NCBI GenBank assembly: GCA_964440465.1
Contig: CAYTSI010000005.1
Coordinates: forward strand, 151-64,150
From: an uncultured Spirochaetales bacterium
GTDB taxonomy: Bacteria; Spirochaetota; Spirochaetia; SPDA01; CAZSGZ01
Length of the DNA stretch: 64,000 bases
Direction of reading: 5' to 3'
A program made the translations under genes and the position numbers. The notes under the pieces are model-generated. The model was not told the DNA's origin and did no database searches. It worked only from the letters and a program-made list of their open reading frames with translations. The first letter of the stretch is position 1. Every line of letters begins with the position of its first letter. Shown here in pieces: positions 12,175 through 58,476 of the stretch.

Positions 12175-14651
12175 TCATCCGGGACCTGCACATTCATACC
12201 TTCGGGGACTTTCAGGATGTCCGGCTGCAGTTTGCAGACGGGTGTAATATTGTCCTTGGTGAAAATGAAGCGGGTAAGTCAACGGTTTTCAATGTAATCG
12301 ATCATCTGCTGTTTACTCCCGTCAAGCTGACGAAGCGTGAAATGGAAAAAAGCTTGAATCGATGGTTTCCCGTTGGAGGCGGGGATACGTTGAGCGCGGA
12401 ATTATCTGCCGAACTCGGGGACAGAGCTGTTCGGTACTTCAAGTGCTGGGGCGGGAATCCGGAAGGAACAATTCGATTTTCACCGGGAGGGACCTATTCG
12501 GGCGATGATGCCCTCGCTGCGGAAACGGAAAAATTGTGGGGATACTCTCCGGAGACGGTGCGGCAGGTTTGCCTGCTGCGGCAGAGTACCCTCGCGGATA
12601 CGCTGCCTTCCTACCAGAATTCGAAGGAGGTATTGCAGTCTCTTACCGACATCCTGCAAAATTCTTTAATAGAAGGCGGCGGTATTTCCACCTCCGGTTT
12701 TATTGAAACTCTCCGGGACCGGTACAGCTTGTTTTTTTCAAGATGGGACAGAGACCGGAACTATCCGGAAAAAAACAGAGGGATTGAAAATCCATGGTCG
12801 GTAAACGTGGGTACGGTTTTGAAATGGTGGTATGAAATGAAGCGGGCCGAGTTAGAGGTCCGGCGGGTAGAGCAGCTGGAAGACTCAATATGTTTACTGC
12901 AGAGCAGCCAAAAAGAAAAAAAGAAGGAAACGGCAGCTCTCGAGTCGTTTCTTTCTGCCTTTGAGACAGTCTACAACACTGCCGGAGACAGAAAAAGCCT
13001 GGAATTGGAACTGCGGGAAATTATCGGTACGATGGAGCGGATAAAGAAAGACAGTCAATCCTGGGGACGGGGGAGGGATGGTCTTGAACAGGCGCTCCGG
13101 GAGCGGAAAGAAGGGAACGAAGAACTTGGAAAGCTCCGCGGGCGGATCGAAAGCAGGGATGAAGTAACGGCGAAACGGAAACGGTTCGAAAAATATCGTC
13201 GGCTGCTGGAGGTGAAAACAAAACTCGACGCCCTGGAGGCAAAGCTCAGAGAACAGCCGGCAATACCGGAAAAGGATTTGCAGGCACTCCGTGAATCAAG
13301 GTTGGCAATTCGGGAAAGTGAGGTGAAACTGCAGTCCGGAACACTCTTTGCACAGCTGACCGCGAAGAAAAATATCAGTTTTTCCTATACTCCCGGATTG
13401 GGCACTGAAAAGCGGCGTGACCTTATGGCAGGGAATTCGCTTGAAATAACGGCGGAAGGGAAAATTCGGCTGAGCCACGAAGACTGGGAGCTGGATGTTT
13501 ATTCGGGAAACGAAGATTACGAAACCGTCAAAAAGGAGCTGGAGGCAGGCAAAAAAGAGTTTAACGCTCTCTGTGAGAAGTACGGTGTTGTTTCCGTCGA
13601 GGAAGGAGAAGCACAGCGGAAGGTTTATACTGATCTGGAAGGGGAAACGGCACGGGCGCGGAAACAATTTTCCGAGGAACGCGGAGAGGACTCTTTTGAA
13701 GCCCTGAAGAAGGAAGTCGAAAGTTTTGGGGCCCTTCCTGAGGAAACCGACAGTACCGAGCTGGGAAGAGAATACGGTTCTCTCAATGAACGGCTTGCCG
13801 CGCTTGAAAAAACAATACAGGAACATCGGGAACGGTTGTCGTATTTGGAAGAGACATATGGGACGGAGGAAAAGCTTCTGGACATGCTCGCGGACCTCCG
13901 CGGCCGGCAGCGGGACTTGGAGAAACAAGTGGCTGCTCTTCCGGAAATTCCTGACCCCTTCGAAACGGCGGAAGAATTTCTTGAGGCATACAGGGAAAAA
14001 CAAAGAAAAAGGGAGACGCTCCGTCAGGAAATATTTGAGTTAGATAAGGCGGCCGCCCTTGCGGTAAAAGACCTCCCGGACATCTCCCTCGAGGAGCTCG
14101 AAGCGGACGCTGAAGCCGCGCGGCGGCGTTTTCAATCCGCGCTTTCGGAGGGGGAGACAATCGGCCGGATTCTCGAGACAGCGCTGCGGATCCAAAAAGA
14201 AATTCAGGAGAACCCCTATACCGCCTTTATGGAGGCGGCGGAAGCAAACCTTAAAAAAATGACCGGGCAGAGGCTGCAGTATAAAAGCAGATCAGGCGGG
14301 GGGGACGGTCAGGCAGCGGCCCCTTTTCACGGTGATGTTAGAAACAGCCGGGGAGAAATTCTGGCGTACGGACAGCTTTCAGGCGGAACGAAAGACGCGG
14401 TTTCTCTAGCCGTCCGGCTGGCAATGGCGGAGTATTATCTGAAAAATAAAGCAGGGTTTCTCCTCTTTGATGATCCCCTAGTGGAAATGGACCCGCGGCG
14501 CCAGAAGGCCGCCGCCGAACTGCTTTCCGAAACCGCCCGGCGCTACCAGTCGATAATCTTTACCTGTCATCCCCACATGCGCGATTTATTCCCGAATGCC
14601 AATGTAATTGAGCTGCATCGGGACGGGGAACGGAGGCGTGTTAAATTTTAA
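12171..14651 (+). CDS. SbcC/Rad50-like AAA ATPase with a long coiled-coil insert (YhaN type). It is translationally coupled to the upstream nuclease by an ATGA overlap.
   Basis: It has Walker A (GENEAGKST), a long E/K/R/L-rich coiled-coil centre, the ABC signature LSGGTKDA, Walker B/D-loop (LLFDDPLVEMD) and an H-loop (FTCH). No CxxC zinc hook was seen. Confidence 0.8.
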   Translation: MIIRDLHIHTFGDFQDVRLQFADGCNIVLGENEAGKSTVFNVIDHLLFTPVKLTKREMEKSLNRWFPVGGGDTLSAELSAELGDRAVRYFKCWGGNPEGTIRFSPGGTYSGDDALAAETEKLWGYSPETVRQVCLLRQSTLADTLPSYQNSKEVLQSLTDILQNSLIEGGGISTSGFIETLRDRYSLFFSRWDRDRNYPEKNRGIENPWSVNVGTVLKWWYEMKRAELEVRRVEQLEDSICLLQSSQKEKKKETAALESFLSAFETVYNTAGDRKSLELELREIIGTMERIKKDSQSWGRGRDGLEQALRERKEGNEELGKLRGRIESRDEVTAKRKRFEKYRRLLEVKTKLDALEAKLREQPAIPEKDLQALRESRLAIRESEVKLQSGTLFAQLTAKKNISFSYTPGLGTEKRRDLMAGNSLEITAEGKIRLSHEDWELDVYSGNEDYETVKKELEAGKKEFNALCEKYGVVSVEEGEAQRKVYTDLEGETARARKQFSEERGEDSFEALKKEVESFGALPEETDSTELGREYGSLNERLAALEKTIQEHRERLSYLEETYGTEEKLLDMLADLRGRQRDLEKQVAALPEIPDPFETAEEFLEAYREKQRKRETLRQEIFELDKAAALAVKDLPDISLEELEADAEAARRRFQSALSEGETIGRILETALRIQKEIQENPYTAFMEAAEANLKKMTGQRLQYKSRSGGGDGQAAAPFHGDVRNSRGEILAYGQLSGGTKDAVSLAVRLAMAEYYLKNKAGFLLFDDPLVEMDPRRQKAAAELLSETARRYQSIIFTCHPHMRDLFPNANVIELHRDGERRRVKF

Positions 14652-14667
14652 GGCACCCGCGAAAGAA

Positions 14668-15645
14668 TTATGAATCGAAGCTGTATTCCCCGCGCCATGA
14701 AACAATGTATTCCCAGACATTTCCCCGCGGCGGCCGTACCGATCCTCCTGTGCCGGGGTCGTACGTCCACGTTCCCGTAATCCCCTTTTCCGCGGCGGCG
14801 GCTTCGAAATGATACATTGCAATTCCCGTATCGATCCGCTGTAGGTCAATGTGCTTCCTGAAAAGCCCGTAAGCTCTGTCCCTTTGCAGAAAAAAATGCA
14901 CCAGGTTCTCCGCTTTCCCGCTGCCCCGGAAGGTGATTATCAGCCGCCATGGCTGCTTGTTTGATGCCGAGGGAGCAAGTCGCACGCATTCGAGAATGAT
15001 CTTTGTTTTTTCGGAAACTTCACTGGGTTGCAGAGGTTTGAGGGGGACAGAGCTGCAGGTAACGAAAAACAGTTTTTCCCACGGTTTCCGGCGTTTCGAT
15101 CCCGCGGCAAATCTGATGAAGCGTGCAGCCGGCCGCCTACGTTCCGCCGGATATCCCACAGGTGTTATTGCAGGGATAATTTCGTTGTCTGGAAGATTGA
15201 GGTATTCTGAAAGTTTCCCGCGCTGAAAAGTTCCCCCGAGCCAGCAGGTCCCGAGGCCGAGATTCGTCAACTGCAGGATAATATGTTCAAAGGTGTAGCC
15301 GAGGTCCGTCATTTTCTGAGGGACAGAGCTGCCTTTTGAGGAATTTTCTATGTTTCGCTTCCGATTTGCAGTGTCCGCCGCGACTGATTTTTCTGTAACT
15401 GTAACAATGCCCGCGGCAAAAAGGCGTGCCCCTCGTATAAAACCGTAAGTACCAAGTGAGCTCCGCCACTCCTCCGGCATACCGGATAGGTCAATCAGCG
15501 TAAACCGGATGCGCGATCCGAACGGCGGGACAGCACCGGGATGTACGATGAGTTTTTCAATTTTATTTACCAGTTCCGGTTCGCAATGCCGCCCAGAATA
15601 AGAGCGGATCGACCTTCTCCGAAGTATTGTATCGTGTATCGTCAT
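14668..15645 (-). CDS. Nitroreductase-family flavoprotein of 325 aa. The internal Met at 15645 is preferred over 15723.
   Basis: RRRSIRSY is near the N-terminus, and GLGTCWLGG and APSASNKQPWRL are nitroreductase signatures. Confidence 0.75.
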   Translation of the reverse strand: MTIHDTILRRRSIRSYSGRHCEPELVNKIEKLIVHPGAVPPFGSRIRFTLIDLSGMPEEWRSSLGTYGFIRGARLFAAGIVTVTEKSVAADTANRKRNIENSSKGSSVPQKMTDLGYTFEHIILQLTNLGLGTCWLGGTFQRGKLSEYLNLPDNEIIPAITPVGYPAERRRPAARFIRFAAGSKRRKPWEKLFFVTCSSVPLKPLQPSEVSEKTKIILECVRLAPSASNKQPWRLIITFRGSGKAENLVHFFLQRDRAYGLFRKHIDLQRIDTGIAMYHFEAAAAEKGITGTWTYDPGTGGSVRPPRGNVWEYIVSWRGEYSFDS

Positions 15646-15836
15646 CGTCTCTTGTCGAGGGTAATTATATTCACAGGTAGGAGAATACTCTAATTGGGAG
15701 TCTACTTCTATGGGCGACCTCAAGTTTTCCCTTACTGGTCTGGAGATGTAAAGCGTTTAGGAAAATCAGCTACTTACTCTTAATGCTCCGTCCCTCATCA
15801 ACAGCACCGGTTATCGCTCACCGGTATTCGGCATTA

Positions 15837-16343
15837 TCAGCGTAACTTCATCCAAACCCGCCGCAGGAAATCATTAGGCGGCCGCTCTAATATGTCCAGC
15901 TGTCCCTTATAGATCAAACTCATGCCGCTGTATTTATAGTCTGTCGCGTATTGGACCATTTTGGCGCGAACTGGGTTATTGGCTATATAAACAAATGTGG
16001 CAAGATATTGCAGGAAACTGTGAATTATTTTGCTTTTAAACCGCTCGTTCCATACATGGCCGGTTAGCCCAAATGTTTTATTATACTGCATCGCGAAAAC
16101 GCTTAAAACCCATTGCATAATGGCCGATAAGCTCTCATTATTCAGCGGTTTTATGATGAAATGGTAATGGTTTCCCATTATACAGAAGTTTTTGATAGTG
16201 AAGCGGTATTTTTTTTTTGCCCTTCTGATGACTTCCATAAACATTTCTTGTATTTCCGGTGTTTTGAATATTACTTCTTTGCGGTTCACTCTGGAAACTA
16301 CGTGATAACTTGCCCCATACTGTAATTGCCTTGGTTTTCTCAT
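15837..16343 (-). mobile_element. REP-associated tyrosine transposase (RayT / IS200-like Y1 HUH transposase). It is a single ORF with no obvious inverted repeats.
   Basis: YHVVSRVNRKEVIF ... GNHYHFIIKP (HuH motif) ... NNPVRAKMVQYATDYKYSG (the catalytic Tyr region) closely matches the RayT/TnpA_REP consensus. The gene and its flanks are low in GC. Confidence 0.75.
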
Positions 16344-16464
16344 TCTTTACCCCCTCGAATAGTCGGTATTTTTTTTTGCCTATACTTAATAAGAAGGGGT
16401 AAATAGGATTGCTGATTTTAAAATTCGGTCATTTTTTTTATTTTTTTTGCTCTGTCCCCATCTT

Positions 16465-17661
16465 TTAGCTTTTTAACCGCTTGAGAAGTTCCCGGGCGAC
16501 AGCTGTCTCAACTTTATCCTCTGTCCCTAGCCCGCATACAGTACGGACCATGTGTTCATGTCCGTTTGCGGCCAGTTCTTCAGCGAACTGCTTGTCCCCT
16601 GGGAAAAGAATGCCGTTTTCGTCGGATCCGCGGAATGCAAACCCGGCGGCGGCTGCCTCGGCAATTGCGCTATAGGGAAGCCCGTGGGTTTCGGCTAAAA
16701 GCATTGCTCCGACCAGCCTATCGTCTTTGGCAAGTTTCCGTTGAAGGTCCCGGCCGACCCGGAAAATGGTATCACCCAATGCTTTATTTCGGAACCTGTT
16801 TAGAAGGTCGCCAATGTGTTCTCGGAGCGCGTCCAGAGAGAGATCGGCCGGGTACGCGGCGTGAAGGGCTTCTCCTGACTGTTCCATTGCTTTTTGTACT
16901 TTATCCTTAATTTCCGGAAGCTCAAGGGGTTCCCAGATGTAGGTAAACCCGGGTTCCTTACGATATCCGATATACGCCGCCGCCGCGTGACCCATATTAT
17001 GAATGAACAGTTTCCTGTCTACGTAGGCGGTTATATTTTCCACTGCTTTTATCTCGGGGAAATCCGGCACTTCTCGGACAAATCCGTGTTTATCAAGGAT
17101 AAGCGTATTGTATTCTTCCGAGAATACCCACAGTGGATCTTCGTTTTTGTCTTCCTCCCGCATAATCGGTACCATTTTCCCAATACTCGTTTCAACCAGG
17201 CCCACTGTTTTCTGAATGGGGAAGCCGGGAGGTAGATATTTCTGCAGTTCCCTTCTAAAAAAAGCAGCTCCGTCCCTCATATTTTCAGCAATAATGATGT
17301 CGATTTTTGCCGCTTCCGTCCGCATTTTTATCCCTTCGGCAATAACGGGGATTATATGCGGTAAGACCCCCTTCCCAACAGACGTGGCAATGTACGCCGC
17401 TTTGGAAATTTCTTCCGCTACTGCAGCTCTGTCCCTGCCGTCGACGGCTCGGACACCGGTAACGAAGACCTCTTCATCTTCCTGATTGTTCCGTTTAATA
17501 ATGACACGATAGGAGTTCCTGCTGTTCAACTCCCGTATCAGCGTTTCATCAATATCGACAAAGACAACCTCATAACCGTTGCCTGCAAACACCTTCCCGA
17601 TAAATGATCTGCCGATATTTCCGGCACCGAACTGCACTAGTTTTTTCTGTTTTTCCTGCAT
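16465..17661 (-). CDS. mtlD: Mannitol-1-phosphate 5-dehydrogenase / mannitol dehydrogenase family.
   Basis: The N-terminal FGAGNIGRSF Rossmann motif and overall similarity to the MtlD family, including NMGHAAAAYIG. Confidence 0.85.
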   Translation of the reverse strand: MQEKQKKLVQFGAGNIGRSFIGKVFAGNGYEVVFVDIDETLIRELNSRNSYRVIIKRNNQEDEEVFVTGVRAVDGRDRAAVAEEISKAAYIATSVGKGVLPHIIPVIAEGIKMRTEAAKIDIIIAENMRDGAAFFRRELQKYLPPGFPIQKTVGLVETSIGKMVPIMREEDKNEDPLWVFSEEYNTLILDKHGFVREVPDFPEIKAVENITAYVDRKLFIHNMGHAAAAYIGYRKEPGFTYIWEPLELPEIKDKVQKAMEQSGEALHAAYPADLSLDALREHIGDLLNRFRNKALGDTIFRVGRDLQRKLAKDDRLVGAMLLAETHGLPYSAIAEAAAAGFAFRGSDENGILFPGDKQFAEELAANGHEHMVRTVCGLGTEDKVETAVARELLKRLKS

Positions 17662-17794
17662 ACCCTATTATAAAGTGTTCGTGTACTCCGATACAAGCCG
17701 AGCGGGAGAGCCTGTCCTTGCCTCCGAAGGCCTTCAGTGCTCTGTCCCCGGAATTGCCGGAATTGCGGAATTGAACTGTCTGCCATTGCACTAG

Positions 17795-18769
17795 ATGATC
17801 ATATTTGAAATACTAAAGAAAAGTGAGGCTGATGTGAAACCAGTAATAACTGCATATGGCGAGGCCCTGTGGGACCTTCTGCCGGAAGGCCCGGTCTTAG
17901 GCGGGGCATTGCTGAATTTTACCTACCGGGCAAAGAGCTTAGGCGCTGACGCGGAATGTATCAGCAGGCTCGGTATGGACGATTTGGGGGACAGAGCTGC
18001 CGGAAAAATGAACGACTTGGGGTTTGATATGAATTATATTCAGAGGGACAGTGCTCACTCTACCGGGACGGTCCCAGTCAGTTTTGATGAACAGAAAAAT
18101 CCCAGCTATGTCATTACCCCGGAGGTTGCGTTTGATTTTATTGAAGACACGGAAAATCTTGAGGCCAGAATACAACAATCCGACTGCCTCTGCTTCGGGA
18201 GCCTTATTCAGCGCGCTCCGGTTTCGCGGGAAACCCTCTACAAACTGATCGAGCAATTCGGGGGCAGGTACCTGCTTTTCGATATCAATTTACGAAAAGA
18301 CTGTTATTCCTCCAAAACGGTGCGCACGTCCCTGGAAAAATGTCATATTGCGAAGCTCAATGAGGACGAACTGCATGAGCTTAAAGAATTAATTGGAATT
18401 TCCGGGAATTCAGTCCGGAAACTGACGCAATCCTGTGTTGAAACCTACGGTTTGACCTATTGTCTCGTAACTTTAGGAGACAAGGGGCTTTTTGCCGCGG
18501 CTGATTCGGGGACAGAGGTGTATGTTCCGGGTATTGTCGTCGACCTTGTCGACCCGATTGGTGCCGGGGACGCCTGTACGGCAGGGTTTATTTTTTCTCT
18601 CCTGCAGGACAGTCCTCTCGATTACGCGTGCAAATATGCCAATGCAATCGGTGCGGCGGTCGCGGAAACTTCCGGGGCCACCGGTTTTGTATCGAAAGAG
18701 CGGATCGAAGCGGTCCTCCGCGGTGGGGACTATTCGGAGCCTCATCCAGAATTTCGGAGGAAGTACTGA
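17795..18769 (+). CDS. PfkB-family carbohydrate kinase, ribokinase/fructokinase-like.
   Basis: DPIGAGDACTAGFIFSL is the PfkB signature 2. An N-terminal GG dipeptide motif region is also present. Confidence 0.8.
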   Translation: MIIFEILKKSEADVKPVITAYGEALWDLLPEGPVLGGALLNFTYRAKSLGADAECISRLGMDDLGDRAAGKMNDLGFDMNYIQRDSAHSTGTVPVSFDEQKNPSYVITPEVAFDFIEDTENLEARIQQSDCLCFGSLIQRAPVSRETLYKLIEQFGGRYLLFDINLRKDCYSSKTVRTSLEKCHIAKLNEDELHELKELIGISGNSVRKLTQSCVETYGLTYCLVTLGDKGLFAAADSGTEVYVPGIVVDLVDPIGAGDACTAGFIFSLLQDSPLDYACKYANAIGAAVAETSGATGFVSKERIEAVLRGGDYSEPHPEFRRKY

Positions 18770-18822
18770 ACTTTTAGTTGATTTTTTTGCGCTTTACTAT
18801 TATTATATCTCGAAACAACTAA

Positions 18823-19008
<186 letters not shown>

Positions 19009-19046
19009 CACTTTTACGTAAGCAGTGTTAAGCTGCATTTTGTATG

Positions 19047-19090
19047 AAAGCTGCTGCCGGCCGTTGGTGCCGACGGCAGCTTTTTGTTTG
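19047..19090 (+). terminator. Rho-independent terminator downstream of the ferredoxin gene.
   Basis: The hairpin is gctgccg-N13-cggcagc, followed immediately by TTTTTGTTTG. Confidence 0.6.
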
Positions 19091-19119
19091 CCCGGCGAAG
19101 CCGGCAAACCTGCCGCGGT

Positions 19120-19130
19120 GGGGACAGAGC
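19120..19130 (+). repeat. Intergenic copy of the hyper-abundant motif GGGGACAGAGC.
   Basis: An exact match to the core 10-mer that is seen 19 times in the window. Confidence 0.7.
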
Positions 19131-19156
19131 ATGCCGATCGATGCCTAATTAATTCG

Positions 19157-19185
19157 TTGACAGGGGACAGAGCCGAAGGTAAACT
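19157..19185 (+). promoter_or_regulatory. Sigma70 consensus promoter for the downstream secreted-protein gene: TTGACA, a 17-bp spacer, then TAAACT. The spacer is itself a copy of the GGGGACAGAGC motif (19163-19173).
   Basis: Read directly as gTTGACAggggacagagccgaaggTAAACT. It is followed by an aaggag RBS and a GTG start at 19204. Confidence 0.5.
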
Positions 19186-19203
19186 TTTTTTAAGGAGTGT
19201 GGT

Positions 19204-19875
19204 GTGAAAAAAATACTAAGTGCTCTCGTGTTGTTGTTCTTTTGCCGCGTTTTTCCTGTTTTTTCCTTCAATCCGGAGGAACTGAACACAATTACCTTTC
19301 ATAATAATACAGGTTACGATATTTACTATATTTTCCTCTCCCCGGGAGACAGCGACTTTTGGGGGCCGGAGGTGCTCGGGGCCGACCGCGTCCTTGGCGC
19401 CGGGGAAAGCCTGGGGTTTTATATTCATTACCCCGATTTTTCGAACACTTTCGATATTATGGCCATCGATGACGACGGGTATACCTTTATTCTGTGGGAC
19501 TATGAAGTCTCCGACGATGCTCCGGCGGAACTGACTTTCGATTTTGAAGACCTTTTGGACGATCCTCCGGACCTGGAGTTTATTACACTCAATGTAACAA
19601 ATGAAACGGTGCCGGTTTATCTTCTTTTCGTATCTCCCGAAGATTCAAACATGTGGGGTGTCGATTTGCTGGATGAATATACCATTTTAGAATCGGAAAA
19701 ATCCTTCAGTGTTCTCGTTCCGGTGGGTGGGACTACAACAACCTACAACGTTCTGGCGGTGGACGAGGACATGGATGAATACATCTTTGATATTCACCTC
19801 AACACCCGCTATGCCGATTCCGAAGGGACCATGTACGAGGCCGTTACCCTGGATGATTTGGTTACCGGCTACTGA
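19204..19875 (+). CDS. Secreted acidic hypothetical protein with an internal tandem duplication of a domain of about 75 aa.
   Basis: It has a signal peptide (MKKILSALVLLFFCRVFPVFS). Two homologous halves are ITFHNNTGYDIYYIFLSPGDSDFWGPEVLG... and ITLNVTNETVPVYLLFVSPEDSNMWGVDLL... Confidence 0.55.
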   Translation: MKKILSALVLLFFCRVFPVFSFNPEELNTITFHNNTGYDIYYIFLSPGDSDFWGPEVLGADRVLGAGESLGFYIHYPDFSNTFDIMAIDDDGYTFILWDYEVSDDAPAELTFDFEDLLDDPPDLEFITLNVTNETVPVYLLFVSPEDSNMWGVDLLDEYTILESEKSFSVLVPVGGTTTTYNVLAVDEDMDEYIFDIHLNTRYADSEGTMYEAVTLDDLVTGY

Positions 19876-21944: not shown

Positions 21945-22031
21945 AGATGCTTATCTTTTCCTTATTACGTTGTATAATATTACCATGATTATTGCAACAT
22001 CAATCTTAATAAATATATACTATTATATAAT

Positions 22032-23165
22032 ATGCAGTTTGTAAATAAAATAAATGTTATGGAGTTGCAAAAACGGGAGCGTCCACGGGAGGAAGATCTG
22101 CGGGGGGCCTTTTTCAGGGACACTACCGCTATTATTCACTCCTATCCTTTCCGAAGGCTGCGGCACAAAACACAGGTATTTTTTTCACCGAAAAACGATC
22201 ATATCTGTACGCGCATCGAACATGTCATGCATGTCGCGACTGTGGCGACCACCATCTGCAAAGCCTTGAAACTCGATACCGACCTGGCTTGGGCAATCAG
22301 CATGGGCCACGACTTAGGGCATACTCCCTTCGGGCATTCCGGCGAAAAAATTATCGAGAAGATGTTTGCCGACCGGGGAGGGTTCGCCCACGAACTCTAC
22401 TCCCTTCGGGTGGTGGACAAACTCCACAAATACGGAAAGGGAATGAACCTGACCTATGCCGTGCGGGACGGAATTGTTACCCACTGCGGAGAAAAGTTTG
22501 AGCAGTTTATTTCCCCCGACCACAGGGTAAAAGAACTTTCTTCCATTACCGACAGGGAGTCCTATCCGGCAACGTGGGAAGGGGCTGTTGTCCGGATGTC
22601 CGACAAAATTGCTTACTTAGGAAGGGACATGGAGGATGCCGTACGGCTGAATGTTATCACTCCGAAAGAGCTTCCCGATACTGTAGTACGGGTCTTAGGA
22701 ACGCGGAACAGCGATATTATTGACACCCTCGTACGTGACTGTGTAGCAACTTCGACAGCTGAGGGACAGATCGGGTTCAGCCCGCGGGTCTACTCCGCTC
22801 TTATCGATTTAAAAGATTTCAACTATGAGCATATTTATACAAGCAGGGCCCTCTCCCGCTATACAGCCTTCTTTGAAAGGATCCTTACGACATTGTTTTT
22901 GTATTTGGAGCGAATTTTTAAAGCTTACCGCTTTACATTTGCCGATTACCAGCGGGAGCATACAATTCTTGCCATCCGCTTTGGAGATTACCTGTCTAAA
23001 ATGCAGTCCTTCTACACCGCCGAGAGAGCGGGGGACGATCAGATAGTAATTGATTATGTAGCAGGAATGACCGACGATTACGCGATAGACTGTATAGAAG
23101 AGATTATGGTCCCAAAAGAGTTTGAACATTACGACAGAGAGCTGTACACAAAGTTGAATTTATGA
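22032..23165 (+). CDS. dGTP triphosphohydrolase-like HD-domain protein (Dgt family).
   Basis: HSYPFRRLRHKTQVF ... the HD motif MGHDLGHTPFGH ... a conserved C-terminal Dgt-like region. Confidence 0.75.
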   Translation: MQFVNKINVMELQKRERPREEDLRGAFFRDTTAIIHSYPFRRLRHKTQVFFSPKNDHICTRIEHVMHVATVATTICKALKLDTDLAWAISMGHDLGHTPFGHSGEKIIEKMFADRGGFAHELYSLRVVDKLHKYGKGMNLTYAVRDGIVTHCGEKFEQFISPDHRVKELSSITDRESYPATWEGAVVRMSDKIAYLGRDMEDAVRLNVITPKELPDTVVRVLGTRNSDIIDTLVRDCVATSTAEGQIGFSPRVYSALIDLKDFNYEHIYTSRALSRYTAFFERILTTLFLYLERIFKAYRFTFADYQREHTILAIRFGDYLSKMQSFYTAERAGDDQIVIDYVAGMTDDYAIDCIEEIMVPKEFEHYDRELYTKLNL

Positions 23166-23192
23166 TTTAATGCAGATATTAGAGGAAAATGA

Positions 23193-23561
23193 ATGCCGTT
23201 TAGTATTTTGGAAAAAGACAGGAAGACATTTGAATATTTTAAAAAATACGTTGAGTTTTTAGAGCTCGAGGAAAACACCTGTCTCATCCTTGACAACAAG
23301 ATACAATCCGAGGAAATCCAGGAGCATTTGCGCCGGACCGGTCATAACAGCGGAATGGATGGAAGGAAAAAAGAGATTATTTCACAGTGGATTAAAGAAA
23401 ATGCCCGTCCGTTCCGGGATTATCTGAACAGCATCAAACTTGCCTATGTCGTATGGAAATGCATGGGCAAAGAATGGTCCGAGATAACCTGGGAAGAGTT
23501 CTTCAAAATCGAAGAGCGCCTCAATTCCCTCAAGTACAAATGTCTCGATACGATTTTTTAA
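23193..23561 (+). CDS. Hypothetical protein of 122 aa.
   Basis: ORF only. No motif was recognised. Confidence 0.35.
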   Translation: MPFSILEKDRKTFEYFKKYVEFLELEENTCLILDNKIQSEEIQEHLRRTGHNSGMDGRKKEIISQWIKENARPFRDYLNSIKLAYVVWKCMGKEWSEITWEEFFKIEERLNSLKYKCLDTIF

Positions 23562-46835: not shown

Positions 46836-46865
46836 CTTCCCCCAATTAACGCGGCCGCCCAAAAC

Positions 46866-50000: not shown

Positions 50001-52820
50001 CGGAAAGCGGTAACGGAACTGAGCTTGTACGCCACCGGCGGCGGGTGGGTCCGCTGGGGGTCCGGAGACGCGGACATGCTGGAGCTGAAACCGGACAAGC
50101 AGCTGTATAAGCCGGGAGATACGGCGAAAATCCTGCTGCAGTCTCCCATTCCCGAAGGGGACTACCTGATAACCGTCGAGCGGGAGGGAATTTTCAATGA
50201 GAGAAAAATCAGCGTGGAAGGATCGGCGAAGCTGATCGAGGTCCCGATTACGGAGGACTATCTGCCGGTTGTGTATGTCAGCGTTTCCTCCTATACGGTG
50301 AGGACCGGCAAACCGGAGCATACCTACTTCGAACCCGATTTAGACAAGCCGAAGGGACTCTACGGCGTTACGCCGCTGCGGGTTGAAACGGCGGCGAAAT
50401 TGATCGATATCAGTATCGAACCGGCGGCACCTGCCTATTTGCCGGGGGCTGAGGCGGAAGTGGTCCTTACCGCGACACAAAACGGCAGGCCCGTGGAAAA
50501 CGCGGAGCTTACCTTTTTGGCAGTCGACCGCGGGGTTTTAGACCTCATCAACTACCATATTACGGACCCGCTTGCATTTTTCTACAGTGAAGGACGGTTT
50601 CCCCTGGCCGTGGAGGGGGCGGATTCCCGGTCCCTCTTAATCGACCCGGTTACCTACGACGTGCCCGACCTGGCAGGGGGCGACGGGAAAGACGGAGAAG
50701 ACGAGGGAGGCGCCGGTATGGGGATGAAAAGGCGGGAGGATTTTAACCCTACCGCGGTTTTCGAGCCGTTTCTCAGTACCGATGAAGAGGGCAGAGTAAC
50801 GGTGCGCTTTACCCTTCCCGATACCCTTACAACGTACCGCTTAACCGCCGTTGCGGTACGGGACAACAGCTTCGGTATTCAGGAAAAAGAGCTGAAGGTC
50901 CAGAATCCCATCAACGTAAAAACCGCCTTTCCGCGGCGTCTCCGCTACCGGGACACCGCCGTCGGCAGCGTGCTGCTTACCAATTTAGACGGCAAAGAGC
51001 ACGAAGTTACCCTGAATATCGAATCGGACATTCTCGGTATCGGAGGAAAAAACTCCAAGACCGTTGCCATACCCGCGGCGTCCACCTTGGAAGTGCCGTT
51101 TCAGCTCTTAGCTGTTTCGCCGGGTACGGCGGAAATTACGGTCACCACGAAGTCCGAAGTCCTGGAAGAACAGCTTGTGGAAACACTAATTGTTGAAAAG
51201 CCCTACATTTTCGAAACATTTGCCACTATCGGGCAGGCGGAGGACTCCGCGGGAGAGGGGATTGTACTTCCTTCCTATGTCGACGACGATGAGGGGAGCC
51301 TTACCATTAACCTTTCCGGTTCCCGGGCCGCCTCGTTAGGAGAGGCAATCGACTATGTAATCGGATATCCGTACGGCTGCATGGAGCAGCGGGCGAGCAA
51401 ACTCTTGCCGCTGGTGCTTTTAGAGGATTATGTCGACGATTTCGCTTTGGAAAATCCCGTCGGGGACATCAGGGGAACGGTGCAGGCCGACCTCGACTTG
51501 TGGGGAGCGTATCAGCGTTCCGACGGGGGGTTCCCCTTCTGGCCGGTCCGGGAAGGTGTATATTCATCCTACTATGCCACTGTCCGTGCCGGACACCTCC
51601 TGGCCCTCGCACGGGACCGGGGCTACACGATTCCGGACGGCCTCAGTGTTCCCGGGCTGCTCGACTATCTGGCCAATCCCCCCTCCTCCGCGCGGGGGAA
51701 CAATTACCTCATGCTCTACGGGCTCTATGTCCGCTCCCTCCTCGGTGCCGGAGTTTCCGGGGAGGCGGCCCGCTATTTTGCCAGGGGTGATGAAATTGGT
51801 ATTTCAGGATACGGATTTTTAGGGCTTATTTACCTGGACCAAAACCAGGACAATCAGGCGGAGCAGTGCCTGAACAGAATTAAGCAGTTTGTCCGGCCCG
51901 GTACCCGGTCCGTTGATCTAACGGAAACATACGAAAGCTCCTCGTTTTATAATTCCCAGGTTGAGCAGCTGGCGCTGTTTCTCATGCTTTACAGCCGGAT
52001 CGACCCCGAAAGCGATATGGTAACCAGGATTACCAACACCCTCATGGACAGACAGAAGGGGGGAATCTGGAAAAATACCGCCGATACAAACTGGGCCATT
52101 CAGGCCTTTACCTCATTACTGCAAGCCGAAGGCGGGGGAGGGCCCGATTTTGCCGCGGAGGTGACAATCGACGGTGAGACAATCGCGGAAGCTGAAATCG
52201 ATTCGATCGCGGAAATTTTCAACCGGAAGCTGCCCCTGTCGGGAAGCGTGCTTACGGGATTCGACCGGGACACCATGTATCCCCTTACATTTACAAAAGA
52301 GGGGGCGGGCCGCCTCTACTATACCGCGAGTCTGCGTTACGCAATTCCTTCGGAAATAAGCTACCCCCGGGACGAGGGGATAGGGATTGTCTATGAAATC
52401 AGCACCGTAGACGGGCAGAAGGTGGAGGGTGCTGCCCTTACCGTCGGTAAAACGTACCGTCTGAAAGCGGTAGTTTCCAGCCACCGCGGCCGGAGCTACG
52501 TAGCTGTCCGTCTGCCCGTGCCGTCGGGGGCGGAAATCCTCGATGCCGCTTTCGTTACCACACCGAAGTACGACGAATTTCAGGACCCGGACGTCGACTG
52601 GTCCCGGTATGTTCCATTCGGGTCGAAAATATTCGACAACGAAGTGCGCTATTTCTGGGACGAGTTCCCCCGGGGGCGGCAGGAGGTGAGTTTTCTCTTC
52701 CGGACGACCAGCGGCGGTGTTTTTCCCACGCCTCCGGCAACGGCGGAATGTATGTACGAACCGGAAATTTTCGGCCGGACCGGGGGGAGGATCTTTATTA
52801 TCAAACGGGATGAGGAGTAG
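47040..52820 (+). CDS. Bacterial alpha-2-macroglobulin lipoprotein of 1926 aa with an apparently intact thioester motif.
   Basis: The lipobox is VFTGC. MG-domain repeats are present. GYPYGCMEQRAS is the thioester CxEQ motif. Adjacency to pbpC is the classic bacterial A2M arrangement. Confidence 0.85.
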   Translation: MKRTVMLIALLLGSILLVFTGCTREEAPGAKPATEENTEEMSESQKIQRQLYQDAAINEDLASYDITYYEPDSIQTVAAPVKESDEPFQIVDYGPVEELPPEVVYPSMYVVFSQPVVPLRQLGEPMRSSDIMSIDPPIQGTFRWYGTRLLSFDADEKALPQRRYTVSISDTARSLGGKELTGEKSFSFHTEYLSIRDFFTGTAEGDYSLDDVPPDEAKTIHIVFSHKVNLNVIKNYLSVEAGGRGYNFTIARPDDPENRLSEEIKERTAVLHVEGLFPEDTDVTVTVRKGARSEADFIGTPVNITRSFHTLRPFRFVDYDTCSWSFPRSRQGEANPVYLKFSHSVKAEDLTGKVRTNPAMEITEENVEVYRDRVRINNLPVAPESVYTLFLDAGITDVYGRKLQRSEQVRVEVPPAERYAYFPNTGPRMLEAAFPKRIMWEHQNVFEGLWKADTVSDPYGTFSHEELRPYNFGEIERNKRYFEVYNFKDYLNSEGYGWVGFSWNFGKRNNDGTMPTWTKRDLRLQVTDLGLTVRHGYNKIITLVTSLATGEAVEGAEVSITRKQAVKKSTETDADGLAVFELEEGEYFEYFGVPGRTYENELRIRVKYGNDKIEFKPNYSHDTWRSNIYNTAAPTQIGTPNMVTYLFTDRKLYKPGETVTFRGIDRNQQYGKYTPFSGGYDIAVRESRYRGREITRFRGETTGSGGLYGSFTLPEDAEPGWYEIAYSRDEKTVRELFQVAHFRRLLFSVDMSSPDITHYQGDTVSFTVASEYLAGGALSRGNYEVYWSKRPVTYTPPGDDWKDYRFGPEGYDSRHSLETAEGSLPPTGTINVKQKTSPEGIEGRAYVYEAEARISDVSNQLVAKREGVTVHPAAFYIGARVKDAAGSWYTFVEKGKEMECEVRLVTPEGGLVKDGEKISLTGELYKIEWKLAQQQGVYDTINSRWERVETKIADEEITLSSGKGTARFTPGESGSYYIKFTAEDAMERKAVTELSLYATGGGWVRWGSGDADMLELKPDKQLYKPGDTAKILLQSPIPEGDYLITVEREGIFNERKISVEGSAKLIEVPITEDYLPVVYVSVSSYTVRTGKPEHTYFEPDLDKPKGLYGVTPLRVETAAKLIDISIEPAAPAYLPGAEAEVVLTATQNGRPVENAELTFLAVDRGVLDLINYHITDPLAFFYSEGRFPLAVEGADSRSLLIDPVTYDVPDLAGGDGKDGEDEGGAGMGMKRREDFNPTAVFEPFLSTDEEGRVTVRFTLPDTLTTYRLTAVAVRDNSFGIQEKELKVQNPINVKTAFPRRLRYRDTAVGSVLLTNLDGKEHEVTLNIESDILGIGGKNSKTVAIPAASTLEVPFQLLAVSPGTAEITVTTKSEVLEEQLVETLIVEKPYIFETFATIGQAEDSAGEGIVLPSYVDDDEGSLTINLSGSRAASLGEAIDYVIGYPYGCMEQRASKLLPLVLLEDYVDDFALENPVGDIRGTVQADLDLWGAYQRSDGGFPFWPVREGVYSSYYATVRAGHLLALARDRGYTIPDGLSVPGLLDYLANPPSSARGNNYLMLYGLYVRSLLGAGVSGEAARYFARGDEIGISGYGFLGLIYLDQNQDNQAEQCLNRIKQFVRPGTRSVDLTETYESSSFYNSQVEQLALFLMLYSRIDPESDMVTRITNTLMDRQKGGIWKNTADTNWAIQAFTSLLQAEGGGGPDFAAEVTIDGETIAEAEIDSIAEIFNRKLPLSGSVLTGFDRDTMYPLTFTKEGAGRLYYTASLRYAIPSEISYPRDEGIGIVYEISTVDGQKVEGAALTVGKTYRLKAVVSSHRGRSYVAVRLPVPSGAEILDAAFVTTPKYDEFQDPDVDWSRYVPFGSKIFDNEVRYFWDEFPRGRQEVSFLFRTTSGGVFPTPPATAECMYEPEIFGRTGGRIFIIKRDEE

Positions 52821-52832
52821 AAACAGCCGGTG

Positions 52833-52862
52833 ATTAACCCGCTCGGAAATGAGCGGGTTAAT
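52833..52862 (+). terminator. Stem-loop of 12 bp with a 6-nt loop, directly after the A2M stop. It lacks a U-tract.
   Basis: The hairpin is attaacccgctc-ggaaat-gagcgggttaat, read directly. Confidence 0.4.
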
Positions 52863-53118
52863 TAAGTGACAAGGCCCCTCGCCCGCGGAGGGTTCCCGGC
52901 CCCGTCCTGCTACGTCTTCTGGCTGACGGTATGAAAAGTATGCGGATAGTCCTTCCCGCTCACGTGGCAGTGGACCAACCGCGTAGAAACCCTCCACCGA
53001 ACACAGCAGCGCGTCTGCAGCGGAATTACACCGCAATTCCGTATAGCAGGACGGTTAGAAATCACCAACTGTCGGCAGTATACTATTCATCCGCCGGGAA
53101 TGCAAGCAAAAATCCGGC

Positions 53119-53696
53119 TTGATCTTCCGGTATCCGGGGTTTATATTTGTATTAATGAAAAAGACAATAATTCTCCTGCTGGTCCTGATGTGCGCGGTCC
53201 CGGTTTTCGGACTGGAGAGTATTTCCGTATATGGACGCCTGGTCGATTACGCCTGGGCGCATTCCTCGGATGAATTGGCCCTGCTGCTTTTTCGGGGGAA
53301 GGGCATCCCGATGTATATTTTTACAACGGACCTGAGCTGCTTCTGCGGACCGATGTATATCCCGGCATCATTACACTTGTAGGCTGGGATGAAGGGTACG
53401 CGTACTGCATGTCCGATGTACTCCTCGATGCGGGGATGACACAGGGTGAACGGGAGGAGTCGTACCGGAGGAGCGGAGAGGCCGAAGATGGCATTTCCTT
53501 TCGGGATTCGAAGTATTTTGTTGATGAACGGCTCAGGCTGTACCGGATCGATCCGGAAACAGGGACGGCGGTAGAATCCGAGAAATATTACAAGGAGCTG
53601 ATTAGCACTTCCTCCAGCGGTACCTACACTGTTGACTTTTCACAAATTACGCTTCCGGAGTCGGGATTCTCTCAGATTACCGTCAGCATTTTTTAA
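53119..53696 (+). pseudogene. Possible frameshifted small secreted protein. ORFs 53119-53382 (frame 1) and 53409-53696 (frame 3) may be one gene split at a T5G5 homopolymer near 53290.
   Basis: The frame-3 reading is open from 53274, overlapping the frame-1 ORF. The N-terminal ORF has a signal peptide. The join would sit at ctttttcggggga. Confidence 0.3.
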
Positions 53697-53851
53697 GCGG
53701 GCCGTATGGACCATCCCGGGCACGCCCGTCACCACCTTAAAATTGTTGAAGACCTGCCGCTGTCGCAAATAGAAGGGCTGAAAAGCGGCGCGAAGGAGAT
53801 GCTCCACGATCGGCATTTGATTCCCCTTTAAAAAAGGCGTACATTGTTGGC

Positions 53852-55759
53852 ATGAACGACAAAGAAAACCAATTTCAAAATCAATTTGACAAACTGCCCG
53901 GCTTTTCCGGCGGGGACAACGGCAACTTTTTCCGCAAATGGGGACCGCTGCTTCTCCTGCTCCTTCTGTTTACCATTCCCTGGATCGTGACCCTCTTTTC
54001 CGGAGGGGTAACCCGTACACAGGTAAGCTATTCCTTTTTTATTCAACAGCTGAACGAGGGAAATATCGAGTCCGTGCTGGTCCGCGGCGAAGAAATACAA
54101 GGAACGCTGAAGGAAAATGCCCTGACGCTGTCGACGGAAGGGGACGGCGGGGGGACGGAGGTGCGCCGGTTTACCACATTTTATCCGGCAAAGATCAGCA
54201 GTTCGCTCATTTCCGACCTCCAGGGCGGCAATGTTGTGGTATACACCCAGCCTGAAAGGGAGGGGGATTTTTTTACCGTTCTTCTGAATATTCTTCCGTT
54301 TCTTTTTATTTTCTGGATCATTTTTCGGCTTTCCAAACGGATGCGCGCCCAGGGCGGAGGGCTGTTCAATGTTGGCCGGAACAAAGCGAAAAAATATGAA
54401 AAGAAACGGCAGGAGGAAACCACCTTTGACGATGTGGCAGGGATAGAATCGGCGAAGGCCGAACTCAAGGAAATTGTCGATTTTTTAAAGAAGCCGGACA
54501 AGTACCGCAATTTCGGCGCGAAAACGCCGAAGGGAGTACTGTTAGTGGGTCCTCCGGGGACCGGAAAAACGCTCCTTGCCCGCGCGGTCGCGGGGGAGGC
54601 GGATGTGCCCTTTTTCAGCATCAGCGGTTCCGATTTTATGGAAATGTTTGTCGGTGTCGGCGCTTCACGGGTGAGAAATCTGTTTCGGGACGCAAAAAAG
54701 CAGCAGCCGAGTATTATTTTTATCGACGAACTCGACTCCATCGGCAGGAGCCGGGGCGCGGGTTTAGGGGGCGGACACGACGAGCGGGAACAGACCCTCA
54801 ATCAGCTCCTTTCCGAACTGGACGGATTCGAGCAGGACGAAAGCACAATCGTTCTAGCCGCTACCAATCGGCCGGACATTCTCGACCCCGCTCTGCAGCG
54901 CCCGGGAAGGTTTGACCGGCAGATTACCACAAATCTGCCGCCGAAGAAGGACAGAACGTCTATTCTGCGAATCCACAGTAAAAACAAACCATTGGCGGAA
55001 TCCGTGGACCTCGAGCGGCTTGCCTCGAGCACACCCGGGTTCAGCGGCGCGGATTTGGCAAACCTGCTGAACGAGGCGGCCTTGATCGCGGTAAAAAACG
55101 GGAAAAAGGAAATTGAACAGGAGGACCTTGATACGGCCAGGGACAAGGTGATACTTGGTCTTGAACGGAAAAGTGTCGTCATGAGCGACCGGGAAAAGGA
55201 GATTGTAGCGTATCACGAATCGGGGCATGCCTTAGTGGCGGCGCTCCTTCCCAATGCGGAGCCGGTCCACAAGGTCACCATTATCCCACGGGACCGTTCC
55301 ATGGGGGCGACGCAGCAGCTTCCCGAAGAAGACAGGTATCTGTATGAACTCGCCTATCTGCAGGACCGGATTTCGGTAATGATGGGAGGCCGGGCGGCTG
55401 AAAAACTGAAAACCGGTACCCTGACAAGCGGCGCGGAAAACGACTTGAAGGAGGCACAGAAACTCGCGCGGAAAATGGTCCTTGACTGGGGAATGGCGGA
55501 ACAATTCGAGAATATCGCCATGGGCAGCCAGCGGCAGAATGTTTTTTTAGGTGAACAGATCGCGGCTGAAAAAGAGTACAGCGAAGAGACAAACCGGCAC
55601 ATCGATGAAGCGGTGCAAAAACTGCTGACCGATGCTTTTAACCGGGCAACGGAAAACTTACAGGAGCAGGAGAAAGTCCTGGACGGTATTGCCGAAATAC
55701 TGCTGCGGGAAGAGGAGATATCCGGGCGGCAGATTTATGAAATGCTCCACACACAGTGA
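53852..55759 (+). CDS. ftsH: ATP-dependent zinc metalloprotease FtsH.
   Basis: It has two TM segments, AAA+ Walker A (GPPGTGKT) and Walker B (IIFIDELD), an SRH, and the HESGHAL zinc-binding HExxH motif. Confidence 0.9.
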
Positions 55760-55833
55760 AGTTGACCTGCATTTTTTCTTTTAGTATATTTACCGTATCA
55801 GTTTCGTAGAGGAGCTGAAAGAGGAGGAGACCT

Positions 55834-56217
55834 ATGGCTACAATAGATTCAACAATAATAGAGCAGCTGCAGTCGATTATCACTTCGGGGGTGGACGACA
55901 GTGAGCAGAAGTGTAAAGCGGCGTTTAAGGAAGTAATGCCGGAAAATCTGCCCGCTGATAAAATGTTTAACGAAGCGGCGGAGAAATTTTCCGACGAAGA
56001 ACTGGCGGAAGTGTGCGGAGAGGTTGCTTTAACGGTACACGCGGGATGCACCCGTGACGATTTTCACAATTGGAACTACGATCATCTCGAGTTTATCATT
56101 GACCTTTCGAACCGTTACGATTTTGATATACCGAAAAATTTTTTAAACGGGCTTCCCGAGCAGCTGATTATCCTGGTTGATTCGGACCATGTGAAAAAGC
56201 CCGAATGCGATGATTAG
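55834..56217 (+). CDS. Hypothetical acidic protein of 127 aa.
   Basis: ORF only. Confidence 0.35.
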   Translation: MATIDSTIIEQLQSIITSGVDDSEQKCKAAFKEVMPENLPADKMFNEAAEKFSDEELAEVCGEVALTVHAGCTRDDFHNWNYDHLEFIIDLSNRYDFDIPKNFLNGLPEQLIILVDSDHVKKPECDD

Positions 56218-56229
56218 AAAACAGGCTTA

Positions 56230-58476
56230 TTGAAAAGAAACGGTAACTATATACCGGTAATTGTCGCGGGAATAATTATTTTCCTGTTTGTTACCGGAGA
56301 AATTACACTGCGGCATCTCCCCTTTCCCGAACTTGAGGCGTTTCAGAACAGGGCGTACAGTACAATAGTAACCGACAGAAACGGCACAATTCTCAGAATT
56401 CTTCCTCTCGAAGGAGGATTGAGGCGGGAATACGTTCCCCTCGAAGAACTGCGCCCGGAGATTGTCCGGATTTTTATCGAAAGCGAAGACAAGCGGTTCT
56501 CTTTTCACCGCGGTGTGGACGGTTTTGCCGTGCTGCGCGGTTTTTTTCAAAACAGACGAGCGGGACGGACGGTTTCGGGGGCGTCCACCATCTCCATGCA
56601 GCTGGCGGGTCTTGTCCGCCCGCGAAAGCAGACCGTCGGGGGCAAGGTCCTTGAAGCCTGGGACGCCCTTCGCCTGGAGGCAAAACTCTCGAAACGGGAA
56701 ATCCTCGAGCTGTGGCTAAACTCTCTCCCCTTCGGCAGGCAGGCGGAGGGTGTCGGGAGCGGCAGCAGGGCCTACTTCAATATATCCGCCGCGGACCTCT
56801 CAATTCCGGAGGCGGCCCTTCTTGCCGTTGTTCCGAGGCATCCGAAAAAGTACAGCCCCGTCGACAATCCAGAGGGCGCGTATGAAGGCGCGCTCCGCAA
56901 TGCCGGGAGGCTTCGTACGGACATTTCCGCACAGGAGCTGCGGAAGGCCGCCCGGGCCGCGGAGCCGGGAAATTTTATCTACCACGCGCCCCATTTTCTT
57001 CGTCAAATAGGGACAGAGCTCGGCGGCAAGCAGGGCGGCAGGGTAACAACCACATTGGATCTGGAACTTCAGCAGCATTTTCACCGTCTTTTGTCCACCT
57101 ATCAGCAGCGGTACGCCCAAAGCCGCATTACCAGCGCCGCCGGAATGCTCATCGACAATCATACGGGCGAAGTCCTTGCCTACGTCGGTTCACTCGACTT
57201 TTTCTCCGGCAGAGCGGGGGAGCAGCTGGACGGGGTAACCGTCCCGCGGCAGCCCGGGTCCTGTCTTAAACCCTTTCTTTACGCGGCGGCGCTGGAGGAC
57301 GGGTGGTATCCGAACACACTGCTTCCCGACGTCCCGCTCAATTTCGGCGGGGGCGAGGTATATGTGCCTTCGAATTTCACAAATTCTTTTTCCGGTCCCG
57401 TCAGGCTTCGGGTTGCCCTCGGGTCGTCTCTGAACGTACCGGCGGTCTATCTGTTGGATGAGATCGGGTTGGAACGGTTCGGGGAGCTGCTGCGGGCGGC
57501 GGGTTTTCACGTCGGAGCGGGCGCGCTTGAGAAGGCGGGCCTCGGCGCCGCGTTGGGCAATCTGGATGTCTCCCTCCTGGAACTGACCCGGGGCTTCGCC
57601 CTTTTCCCCCGGCGTGGTGTGCCCCTGGAGCTTTCATGGACACTCCCCGAAGTTTTCGAAGGGCCCTCCCCCGCGGGACGGGCCGTTTCCGAATACACCG
57701 CCGATATTATCTGCGACATCCTCTCGGACCCGGCGGCGAGGGCCCGGGGGTTCGGGTACAATTCCGCTTTTACCCTTCCCTTTCCCGCCATGTTTAAAAC
57801 CGGGACAACCGATCAGTTTCAGCACATCTGGGCCCTTGCCGCGACGCCGGATTATACCGTGGGCATATGGATGGGAAACAACACCGGGGAAACGGTAATC
57901 GGCCGGACCGGTTCCTCCGTCCCCGCGCGGATAGCGGCTGAAGTGCTTACCTTCGCGCGGAAGGGGAGGGCGGAATTCCCGGTCCCGGCGGGGGCGGTGC
58001 CGGTGGAGATCTGCACAGTATCCGGGCAGCGGGGGACGGAGCTCTGTCCCTCCGTTGTTACCGAATACCTGCCGGCGGCCGGCGGGGAAGGGGCTGTACC
58101 CGGTCCCTGTACATTTCATATACTGCGAAACGGTACGGTAACAACCGAGTATCCGGAAAAATATCATGCATGGCTGCGGGAGCTGGGCCGGTCGGGGGGA
58201 TTTTCCTTCTCCGGCGGAGAAGGCCTTGAAATTATTCACCCCCGCGGCGGAGCGGTATTTTACTATGACCCGACAGTTTCCGCCGGAGTCCAGGCGCTGC
58301 GGGTCGAGGCAGCTGCCGGCAGGCCCGGGGCCTGCACACTCTATGTAAACGGCGAAAGGGCGGGTACTGTTTTCCATCCCCCCTATGTATGGTTTTTGCC
58401 GCTTCAGCGGGGAGCGTGGGAATTGACCGTATCGAATACCGGTTCCGAGGCGACGGTGCGCGTCGAAGTCCGCTAA
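56230..58476 (+). CDS. pbpC: Penicillin-binding protein 1C, with a GT51 transglycosylase domain, a transpeptidase domain and a C-terminal PBP1C domain.
   Basis: It has an N-terminal TM segment, the GT51 motifs EDKRFSFHRGVD and RPRKQTVGGKV, an SxxK-type transpeptidase region, and a C-terminal domain. It is paired with A2M. Confidence 0.85.
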   Translation: MKRNGNYIPVIVAGIIIFLFVTGEITLRHLPFPELEAFQNRAYSTIVTDRNGTILRILPLEGGLRREYVPLEELRPEIVRIFIESEDKRFSFHRGVDGFAVLRGFFQNRRAGRTVSGASTISMQLAGLVRPRKQTVGGKVLEAWDALRLEAKLSKREILELWLNSLPFGRQAEGVGSGSRAYFNISAADLSIPEAALLAVVPRHPKKYSPVDNPEGAYEGALRNAGRLRTDISAQELRKAARAAEPGNFIYHAPHFLRQIGTELGGKQGGRVTTTLDLELQQHFHRLLSTYQQRYAQSRITSAAGMLIDNHTGEVLAYVGSLDFFSGRAGEQLDGVTVPRQPGSCLKPFLYAAALEDGWYPNTLLPDVPLNFGGGEVYVPSNFTNSFSGPVRLRVALGSSLNVPAVYLLDEIGLERFGELLRAAGFHVGAGALEKAGLGAALGNLDVSLLELTRGFALFPRRGVPLELSWTLPEVFEGPSPAGRAVSEYTADIICDILSDPAARARGFGYNSAFTLPFPAMFKTGTTDQFQHIWALAATPDYTVGIWMGNNTGETVIGRTGSSVPARIAAEVLTFARKGRAEFPVPAGAVPVEICTVSGQRGTELCPSVVTEYLPAAGGEGAVPGPCTFHILRNGTVTTEYPEKYHAWLRELGRSGGFSFSGGEGLEIIHPRGGAVFYYDPTVSAGVQALRVEAAAGRPGACTLYVNGERAGTVFHPPYVWFLPLQRGAWELTVSNTGSEATVRVEVR

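Follow-up and report, generated by a model that had tools for sequence, protein, structure and literature searches.

A short sequence word clustered around a RayT transposase gene in an uncultured Spirochaetales bacterium is probably the core of a RayT-linked repeat

Why should a word of about a dozen bases recur again and again within a single stretch of bacterial DNA, on both strands, between genes and inside them? The question is raised by 64,000 nucleotides from an uncultured Spirochaetales bacterium, a stretch that we call the window and that corresponds to positions 151-64150 of contig C5 (65,018 bp) in a 3.6-Mb genome of 235 contigs and 51.5% GC. The word is GGGGACAGAGC(T), and the same window encodes RayT, a transposase of the REP-associated tyrosine transposase (RAYT) family, REP standing for repetitive extragenic palindromic sequence. 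Overall, we think it probable that GGGGACRGAGC(T), where R is A or G, is the conserved core of a repeat accompanying one clade of RayT in this bacterial class, and that the copies in the genome under study (G000; G001 is its congener, and other G numbers are relatives) are short single arms lying near RayT. The word is linked to RayT, flanks its gene in a recurrent layout, forms local clusters in four unrelated genomes, and is conserved beyond the neutral level.

A preliminary description of the window had counted 19 exact copies of the 10-mer GGGACAGAGC. There are 22, of which 13 lie on the plus strand, as described, and nine rather than six on the minus strand; the copies at 2750, 3238 and 14873 had been overlooked, and some of the coordinates given were off by 1-2 bp. 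The longer form GGGACAGAGCTG occurs nine times in the window and not eleven, and the two subfamilies with longer shared identity are both real, as is the palindrome GGGACGGAGCTCTGTCCC at 58033-58050. The exact copies, and the degenerate family GGGACRGAG to which they belong, are distributed as follows.

12418, 15044, 15320, 17988, 19121, 19164, 33050, 34854, 35892, 42137, 42988, 43250 and 57010, plus strand: exact GGGACAGAGC 10-mers
2750, 3238, 14873, 16449, 17426, 17739, 37055, 41956 and 58041, minus strand: exact GGGACAGAGC 10-mers
2751..58050, 26 on the plus strand and 20 on the minus strand: cluster of GGGACRGAG

The 46 window copies of GGGACRGAG compare with 157 in the whole 3.6-Mb genome, and their alignment yields the consensus gGGGGACRGAGCTg; a search for extended conserved flanks around the copies found none past ±3 bp. 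The bacterial microcompartment (BMC) locus at 0-12 kb, said earlier to be free of the motif, holds three exact 10-mers, and the degenerate form lies there at 2751, 3239, 7146 and 11747. The claim of hyper-abundance stands for the genome as a whole, where a 5th-order Markov model predicts 5.7 copies of the 10-mer and 29 are observed, the highest count in a comparison with its 30 one-mismatch neighbours (median 5), and fails beyond contig C5, which carries 22 of the 29 copies. Outside C5 there is no enrichment (7 observed, 5.6 expected), and the over-representation is therefore local. The degenerate family gives the same picture: the best 50-kb stretch elsewhere in the genome contains at most six copies, against 41-43 on C5, and every one of the k-mers with the strongest enrichment in the window over the remaining genome belongs to this family. 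In the G000 genome 16-mers and 21-mers reach seven repeats at most, and there is no abundant REP population.

Two further repeat signals were seen in this genome. The variant GGGACGGAGG occurs 57 times genome-wide against 16.6 expected under the Markov model, while the exact 10-mer is not enriched outside C5, and an older, dispersed layer of the motif family may exist there. The commonest 10-mers of the genome are of the CCGCCGCCGC type and CGGCGGAAAA/CGGAAAAAAA, at roughly 150-300 copies, and possibly represent another repeat or a low-complexity family.

What, then, does the local cluster surround? Within 2 kb of RayT the density of GGGACRGAG reaches its peak of 2.5 per kb; out to 48 kb it remains at 0.3-0.9 per kb, which is 10-30x background, and in the remaining genome it is 0.031 per kb. 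The gene and its closest copies are arranged as follows.

15786..15794, minus strand: downstream copy GGGACGGAGC, 43 bp past the RayT stop codon
15837..16343, minus strand: RayT gene P0001, 168 aa, a REP-associated tyrosine transposase of the IS200/IS605 Y1 family
16450..16458, minus strand: upstream copy GGGGACAGAGC with an A-rich tail, on the same strand as RayT and 107 bp ahead of its start
16519..16527, minus strand: second upstream copy, 176 bp ahead of the RayT start

RayT matches the Pfam profile Y1_Tnp (E=2.1e-15) and the NCBIfam profile NF047646.1 REP_Tyr_transpos (80.2 bits, cutoff 80), is the only Y1 transposase on C5 and single-copy in the genome, with one match in G000, and is a domesticated transposase. 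The copy 107 bp upstream recurs with the same position and orientation at the loci of G001, G005, G012, G015, G009, G021, G057 and G028, and across genera it is lengthened into a conserved element, GGGGACRGAGGAAAAAAA..., in which GGGGACRGAG is followed by an A-rich tract. The second upstream copy is retained in G001 (locus L062, 1327/1403), and paired upstream copies are also present in G028 and G057. In the typical layout, one copy precedes the RayT start by approximately 55-175 bp on the same strand as the gene, and another follows the stop codon in the opposite orientation; most other loci show this layout, whereas in G000 the upstream and downstream flanking copies are both on the RayT strand. 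Nunvar et al. (2010, PMC2817692) report that a RAYT gene invariably has its own REPs on its flanks, and RAREFAN takes a repeat copy no more than 200 bp from a RAYT gene as its criterion of association. The flanking layout usual in this RayT clade is the RAYT-flanking arrangement known for REPs.

The association extends well beyond a single genome. A search of 151 relatives for RayT gave 30 loci, spread over many families of the class and amounting to about 100 kb in all, for which the expectation was taken from each genome's own motif density. RayT homologs in other genera carry motif copies nearby: within approximately 1.5 kb of RayT, the 30 loci hold 115 copies against 3.55 expected, a 32-fold enrichment that is still 31-fold when the genus of G000 is left out, and 26 of them carry at least one copy. 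Genomes with RayT have a median genome-wide motif ratio of 1.8, against 0.7 in those lacking it (Mann-Whitney U test, p = 9e-9). Local clusters comparable to that of the window surround RayT in G028, with 16 copies in 12.5 kb, in the single-contig genome G057, where the ±20 kb around RayT hold 18 copies (0.82 expected), and in G021, where a span of that size holds 16 (0.70 expected). The word itself is specific to the lineage, being gGGGGACAGAGCTg in G000, cGGGGACAGAGGTT in G028 and GGGGACGGAGGA in G015 and G026. Comparison of RayT neighbourhoods between families revealed no synteny beyond the genus and no genes in common with the G000 locus; because the neighbourhoods are not syntenic, the clusters follow RayT and not a fixed chromosomal domain. 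The class that holds these relatives is probably Spirochaetia, since the homolog matches include proteins named 'Spirochaetes/Spirochaetales transposase'.

Several ideas in the preliminary description can be revised in this light. The motif had been treated as independent of any gene family; it is better described as a repeat core that travels with the RayT lineage across a bacterial class. Of the recombinase and the endonuclease suggested there, the endonuclease is supported, in that the motif is linked to RayT, to which that description had pointed. The motif is not one that a site-specific recombinase binds. Close relatives do share the motif, as both the cluster of the congener and the RayT loci across families show.

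Most of the copies lie within protein-coding genes, which they occupy at the background coding rate. Representative intragenic copies in the window are listed here.

12418..12429, plus strand: copy GGGACAGAGCTG in the gene for an SMC/YhaN-like AAA ATPase (12171-14651), retained in G001
17427..17435, minus strand: copy in the mannitol dehydrogenase gene (16465-17661, minus strand)
33050..33061, plus strand: copy CGGAGGGACAGAGCTG in the vWA gene (32954-34321), where it encodes GTEL, conserved in G001
34575..35900, plus strand: four copies (34575, 34854, 35109 and 35892) in the histidine kinase gene (34293-35954)
57010..57021, plus strand: copy AAATAGGGACAGAGCTCG in the PBP1C gene (56230-58476), where it encodes GTEL, missing in G001
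58033..58050: inverted dimer GGGACGGAGCTCTGTCCC, two motif arms with no spacer, inside PBP1C

PBP1C carries four motif copies in all, the inverted dimer among them. As had been described, intragenic copies occur in several frames: they lie on both strands, and although each of the three reading frames is represented, phase 0 (GTE.) and phase 1 (.D[RG]A) predominate; their codon usage is average. A check of reading frame and codon usage found no clear mark of selection at the protein level, and a 30:10 bias toward the sense strand proved ordinary for purine-rich 9-mers. Selection on the DNA sequence, in contrast, had been proposed earlier and is upheld by comparison with the congener, whose contig C12 contains the syntenic region at 82-93% identity with the same motif cluster. 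Of the 24 window copies within the 28 kb that can be aligned, 20 match G001 exactly, where the identical fraction of all 9-bp windows is 0.457 (p≈2e-4), and in the reverse comparison 20 of 23 G001 copies are retained in G000. Motif bases are 98% identical between the two genomes, and the ±15-bp flanks 87%. The copies are thus constrained at the level of DNA and kept between congeners beyond the neutral expectation.

Where the congeners do differ at a copy, the difference is a point substitution, as at 57010, where GTEL in G000 corresponds to GKEL in G001. The mannitol dehydrogenase copies at 16519, 17268 and 17427 occupy homologous codons, with no indel relative to the G002 and G005 homologs, and the PBP1C copy at 57010 likewise shows no indel relative to its orthologs. 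Indels near copies are weakly enriched, at 4 of 23 against 6%. Because the intragenic copies show no gaps against their homologs, they were not inserted as extra sequence.

The motif can nevertheless be placed within a larger repeat, on the evidence of one relative.

G028:C3:141940-141972 (L097): 33-bp full palindrome GGGACAGAGGTTTATCTGATAAACCTCTGTCCC, approximately 1 kb downstream of the G028 RayT

This palindrome has the form GGGGACAGAGGTTTATC(T/A)GATAAACCTCTGTCCCC, and since the motif constitutes its outer stem, we read the motif as one arm of a palindrome of REP-like type, present in G000 mostly as single arms. Palindromes near-identical to it are carried by G068, and the G028 sequence is possibly the ancestral full REP form of the family. 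Full palindromes occur in seven of the 151 genomes, one in each, and GGGACGGAGCTCTGTCCC at 58033-58050 is the sole motif palindrome of the G000 genome.

A number of observations weigh against reading the copies as those of a REP-type repeat of RayT, and they should be set out together. Hairpin prediction around the copies found none; a search of G000 for inverted partner copies, as in the pairing of REP doublets (REPINs), found none, and nearly all copies are single arms. REPs are extragenic, whereas 40 of the 46 GGGACRGAG copies are intragenic, which is simply the background rate given a coding fraction of 0.90. REPs insert, whereas no insertion gaps appear when six intragenic copies, three each in mannitol dehydrogenase and PBP1C, are compared with homologs from other genera. 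Among the relatives, some RayT homologs at 41-48% identity (for example those of G108, G109, G116 and G137) have no copies nearby, and G010 and G086 have high motif ratios and no RayT. The REP label, in short, describes well how the repeat is tied to RayT and how it flanks the gene, but not how the copies behave.

Comparison with known systems leads to the same division. The locus resembles a REPtron (PMC2817692; PMC3116915, Bertels & Rainey 2011; RAREFAN) in its single-copy, vertically inherited IS200/IS605-type Y1 transposase, in the lineage-specific repeat that flanks RayT within approximately 200 bp and has further copies elsewhere in the genome, and in a repeat sequence that varies by lineage yet is tied to a RAYT clade. 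Known REP and REPIN populations, however, are extragenic and palindromic, comprise tens to hundreds of members across the genome and multiply by insertion (PMC2817692). Where known REPs are imperfect palindromes of 20-40 bp with a GTRG (or CGTC) head, the repeat described here has a core of about 12 bp, usually a single arm, and a consensus without a GTAG head; where they are extragenic and dispersed genome-wide, it is intragenic at the background rate and concentrated within tens of kb of RayT; and where they spread by insertion, it shows no insertion gaps and is kept between congeners beyond the neutral level. IS200/IS605 elements such as IS608 and ISDra2 share with RayT the HUH Y1 transposase family. 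In single-stranded DNA the transposase recognises subterminal sequences at the ends of these elements, and cleavage is guided by short determinants adjacent to the ends. Here, in contrast, the structure of an IS element is missing: there are no repeated transposase copies and no motif hairpins, and the motif lies away from any element ends. Intragenic REPs, known from GTAG/CGTC-tagged families (PMC3733652), do place REP-family sequence in coding regions, although those are palindromic insertions that often add 20-30 amino acids, whereas the copies described here are non-palindromic and replace homologous codons. The Neisseria DNA uptake sequence (DUS), the Pasteurellaceae uptake signal sequence (USS) and Chi are likewise short, over-represented and partly genic, but they are spread over the whole genome (Chi in oriented fashion) and not local and tied to RayT. 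A search of the literature for the motif sequence itself returned only unrelated primer matches.

How the copies arise and stay near RayT we infer from these sequence comparisons. RayT, an HUH single-strand endonuclease, would recognise the motif and would act mostly close to its own gene. Copies would be made or kept in place through point changes or short conversions and not by insertion of a whole element, a route we favour because the intragenic copies lack insertion gaps, and they would then be held by selection or by repeated conversion. The copies may be retained as sites of binding or cleavage with importance for RayT or for the host. A bolder version would have RayT nick single strands in cis, and in a sequence-specific manner, at GGGGACRGAGC(T) instead of moving REPs, with nick-directed repair or short-tract conversion creating and maintaining nearby copies by point changes, coding DNA included; the outcome would be a local 'motif halo', a RAYT-driven homogenisation of sequence instead of transposition. 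We regard this version as unlikely.

The closest competitors of the RayT-linked repeat proposed here also involve RayT. The copies may be putative binding sites for RayT or a partner protein, serving for example in titration or in cis-regulation of RayT activity, that originated by point mutation and were selected near RayT. Their conservation beyond neutral, their origin by substitution and the conserved element upstream of the RayT start all speak for such a role, and we entertain it tentatively as a possible account, one that offers no mechanism by which selection would be confined to tens of kb from the gene. Classic REP mobilisation, in which RayT copies full palindromic REPs with a cis bias (near its own locus, or on the same replication fork as a single-strand intermediate) and the copies then decay to the outer-stem core, would explain the RayT association, the flanking layout and the one full palindrome near the G028 RayT, and it accords with the working of IS200/IS605-type transposases through single-strand intermediates (PMC6006769). 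It fits poorly with the six gap-free intragenic copies, with genic copies at the background rate, with a congener difference that is a point substitution (GTEL against GKEL at 57010) and with only modest enrichment of indels near copies, and we hold it to be rather improbable.

The remaining candidates do not involve RayT. A parS- or matS-like organiser marking a fixed chromosomal domain near the origin or terminus would account for clustering within one region of approximately 65 kb; the clusters, however, track RayT into the non-syntenic neighbourhoods of other families, the motif is not palindromic as parS or matS are, and there is no skew switch within the contig, so that this reading is very unlikely. 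The preliminary description had listed a DNA-uptake sequence, a restriction-modification site and a nucleoid-protein motif as candidates, all of which would be expected genome-wide, whereas the word is concentrated at RayT and at background elsewhere. A DUS/USS-like uptake sequence or a Chi-like recombination motif of this lineage would indeed be short, over-represented, present on both strands and found inside genes. It is nonetheless largely refuted by the near-expected count outside C5 and by the concentration around RayT in several genomes, and we give it scarcely any weight; ComEC is present, which is uninformative since the uptake idea already fails on distribution, and the copies are local and of mixed orientation, not polar. 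Finally, confinement of the cluster to one contig of 235 might suggest a contaminating, misassembled or foreign contig bearing another organism's repeat. The tetranucleotide composition of C5 is typical of the genome, and the congener carries the same cluster in a syntenic region of 82-93% identity; this reading is already refuted, and its probability is close to nil.

The RAYT association is separable here from the usual transposition model. Throughout a class, probably Spirochaetia, the RAYT-linked sequence is a short local word and not a genome-wide extragenic palindrome, and clustering in four unrelated genomes makes this a general property of the RAYT clade, not an oddity of one genome. 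The locus thus provides a testable system for the DNA specificity and cleavage activity of RayT, and for asking whether the enzyme generates or preserves motifs in the vicinity of its gene.

The window also carries other genes, given here in order of position.

1-12000: BMC locus, with an RnfC/Nuo51-like FMN/Fe-S protein (2435-3790), a BMC shell protein (3794-4345) and an aldehyde dehydrogenase (4370-5815), as well as an RpiB/LacAB isomerase, a DeoC/LacD aldolase, a small aspartyl-protease-like protein and an aldo-keto reductase with a 4Fe-4S ferredoxin domain
19869-21944, minus strand: REC-PAS-GGDEF-EAL cyclic-di-GMP signalling protein
23558-31271 and 60230-61654: corrinoid methyl-transfer genes, comprising a RACo-type reductive activator, a CobW-like GTPase, a URO-D-like methyltransferase (MtaA/CmuA family) with a thioredoxin domain, a homocysteine S-methyltransferase, the CobT phosphoribosyltransferase, MetA, DUF1846 and the trimethylamine methyltransferase MTTB
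42910-43671: radical-SAM protein, likely NrdG-like
43692-46964: anaerobic ribonucleotide reductase NrdD (ATP-cone) with NrdR
47040-52820 and 56230-58476: 1926-aa bacterial alpha-2-macroglobulin (A2M) beside PBP1C, a transglycosylase-transpeptidase with BiPBP_C

A2M and PBP1C are a known gene pair. The corrinoid genes suggest methylamine or methyl-group metabolism in an anaerobe, and NrdD/NrdR together with the radical-SAM protein are consistent with an anaerobic lifestyle.

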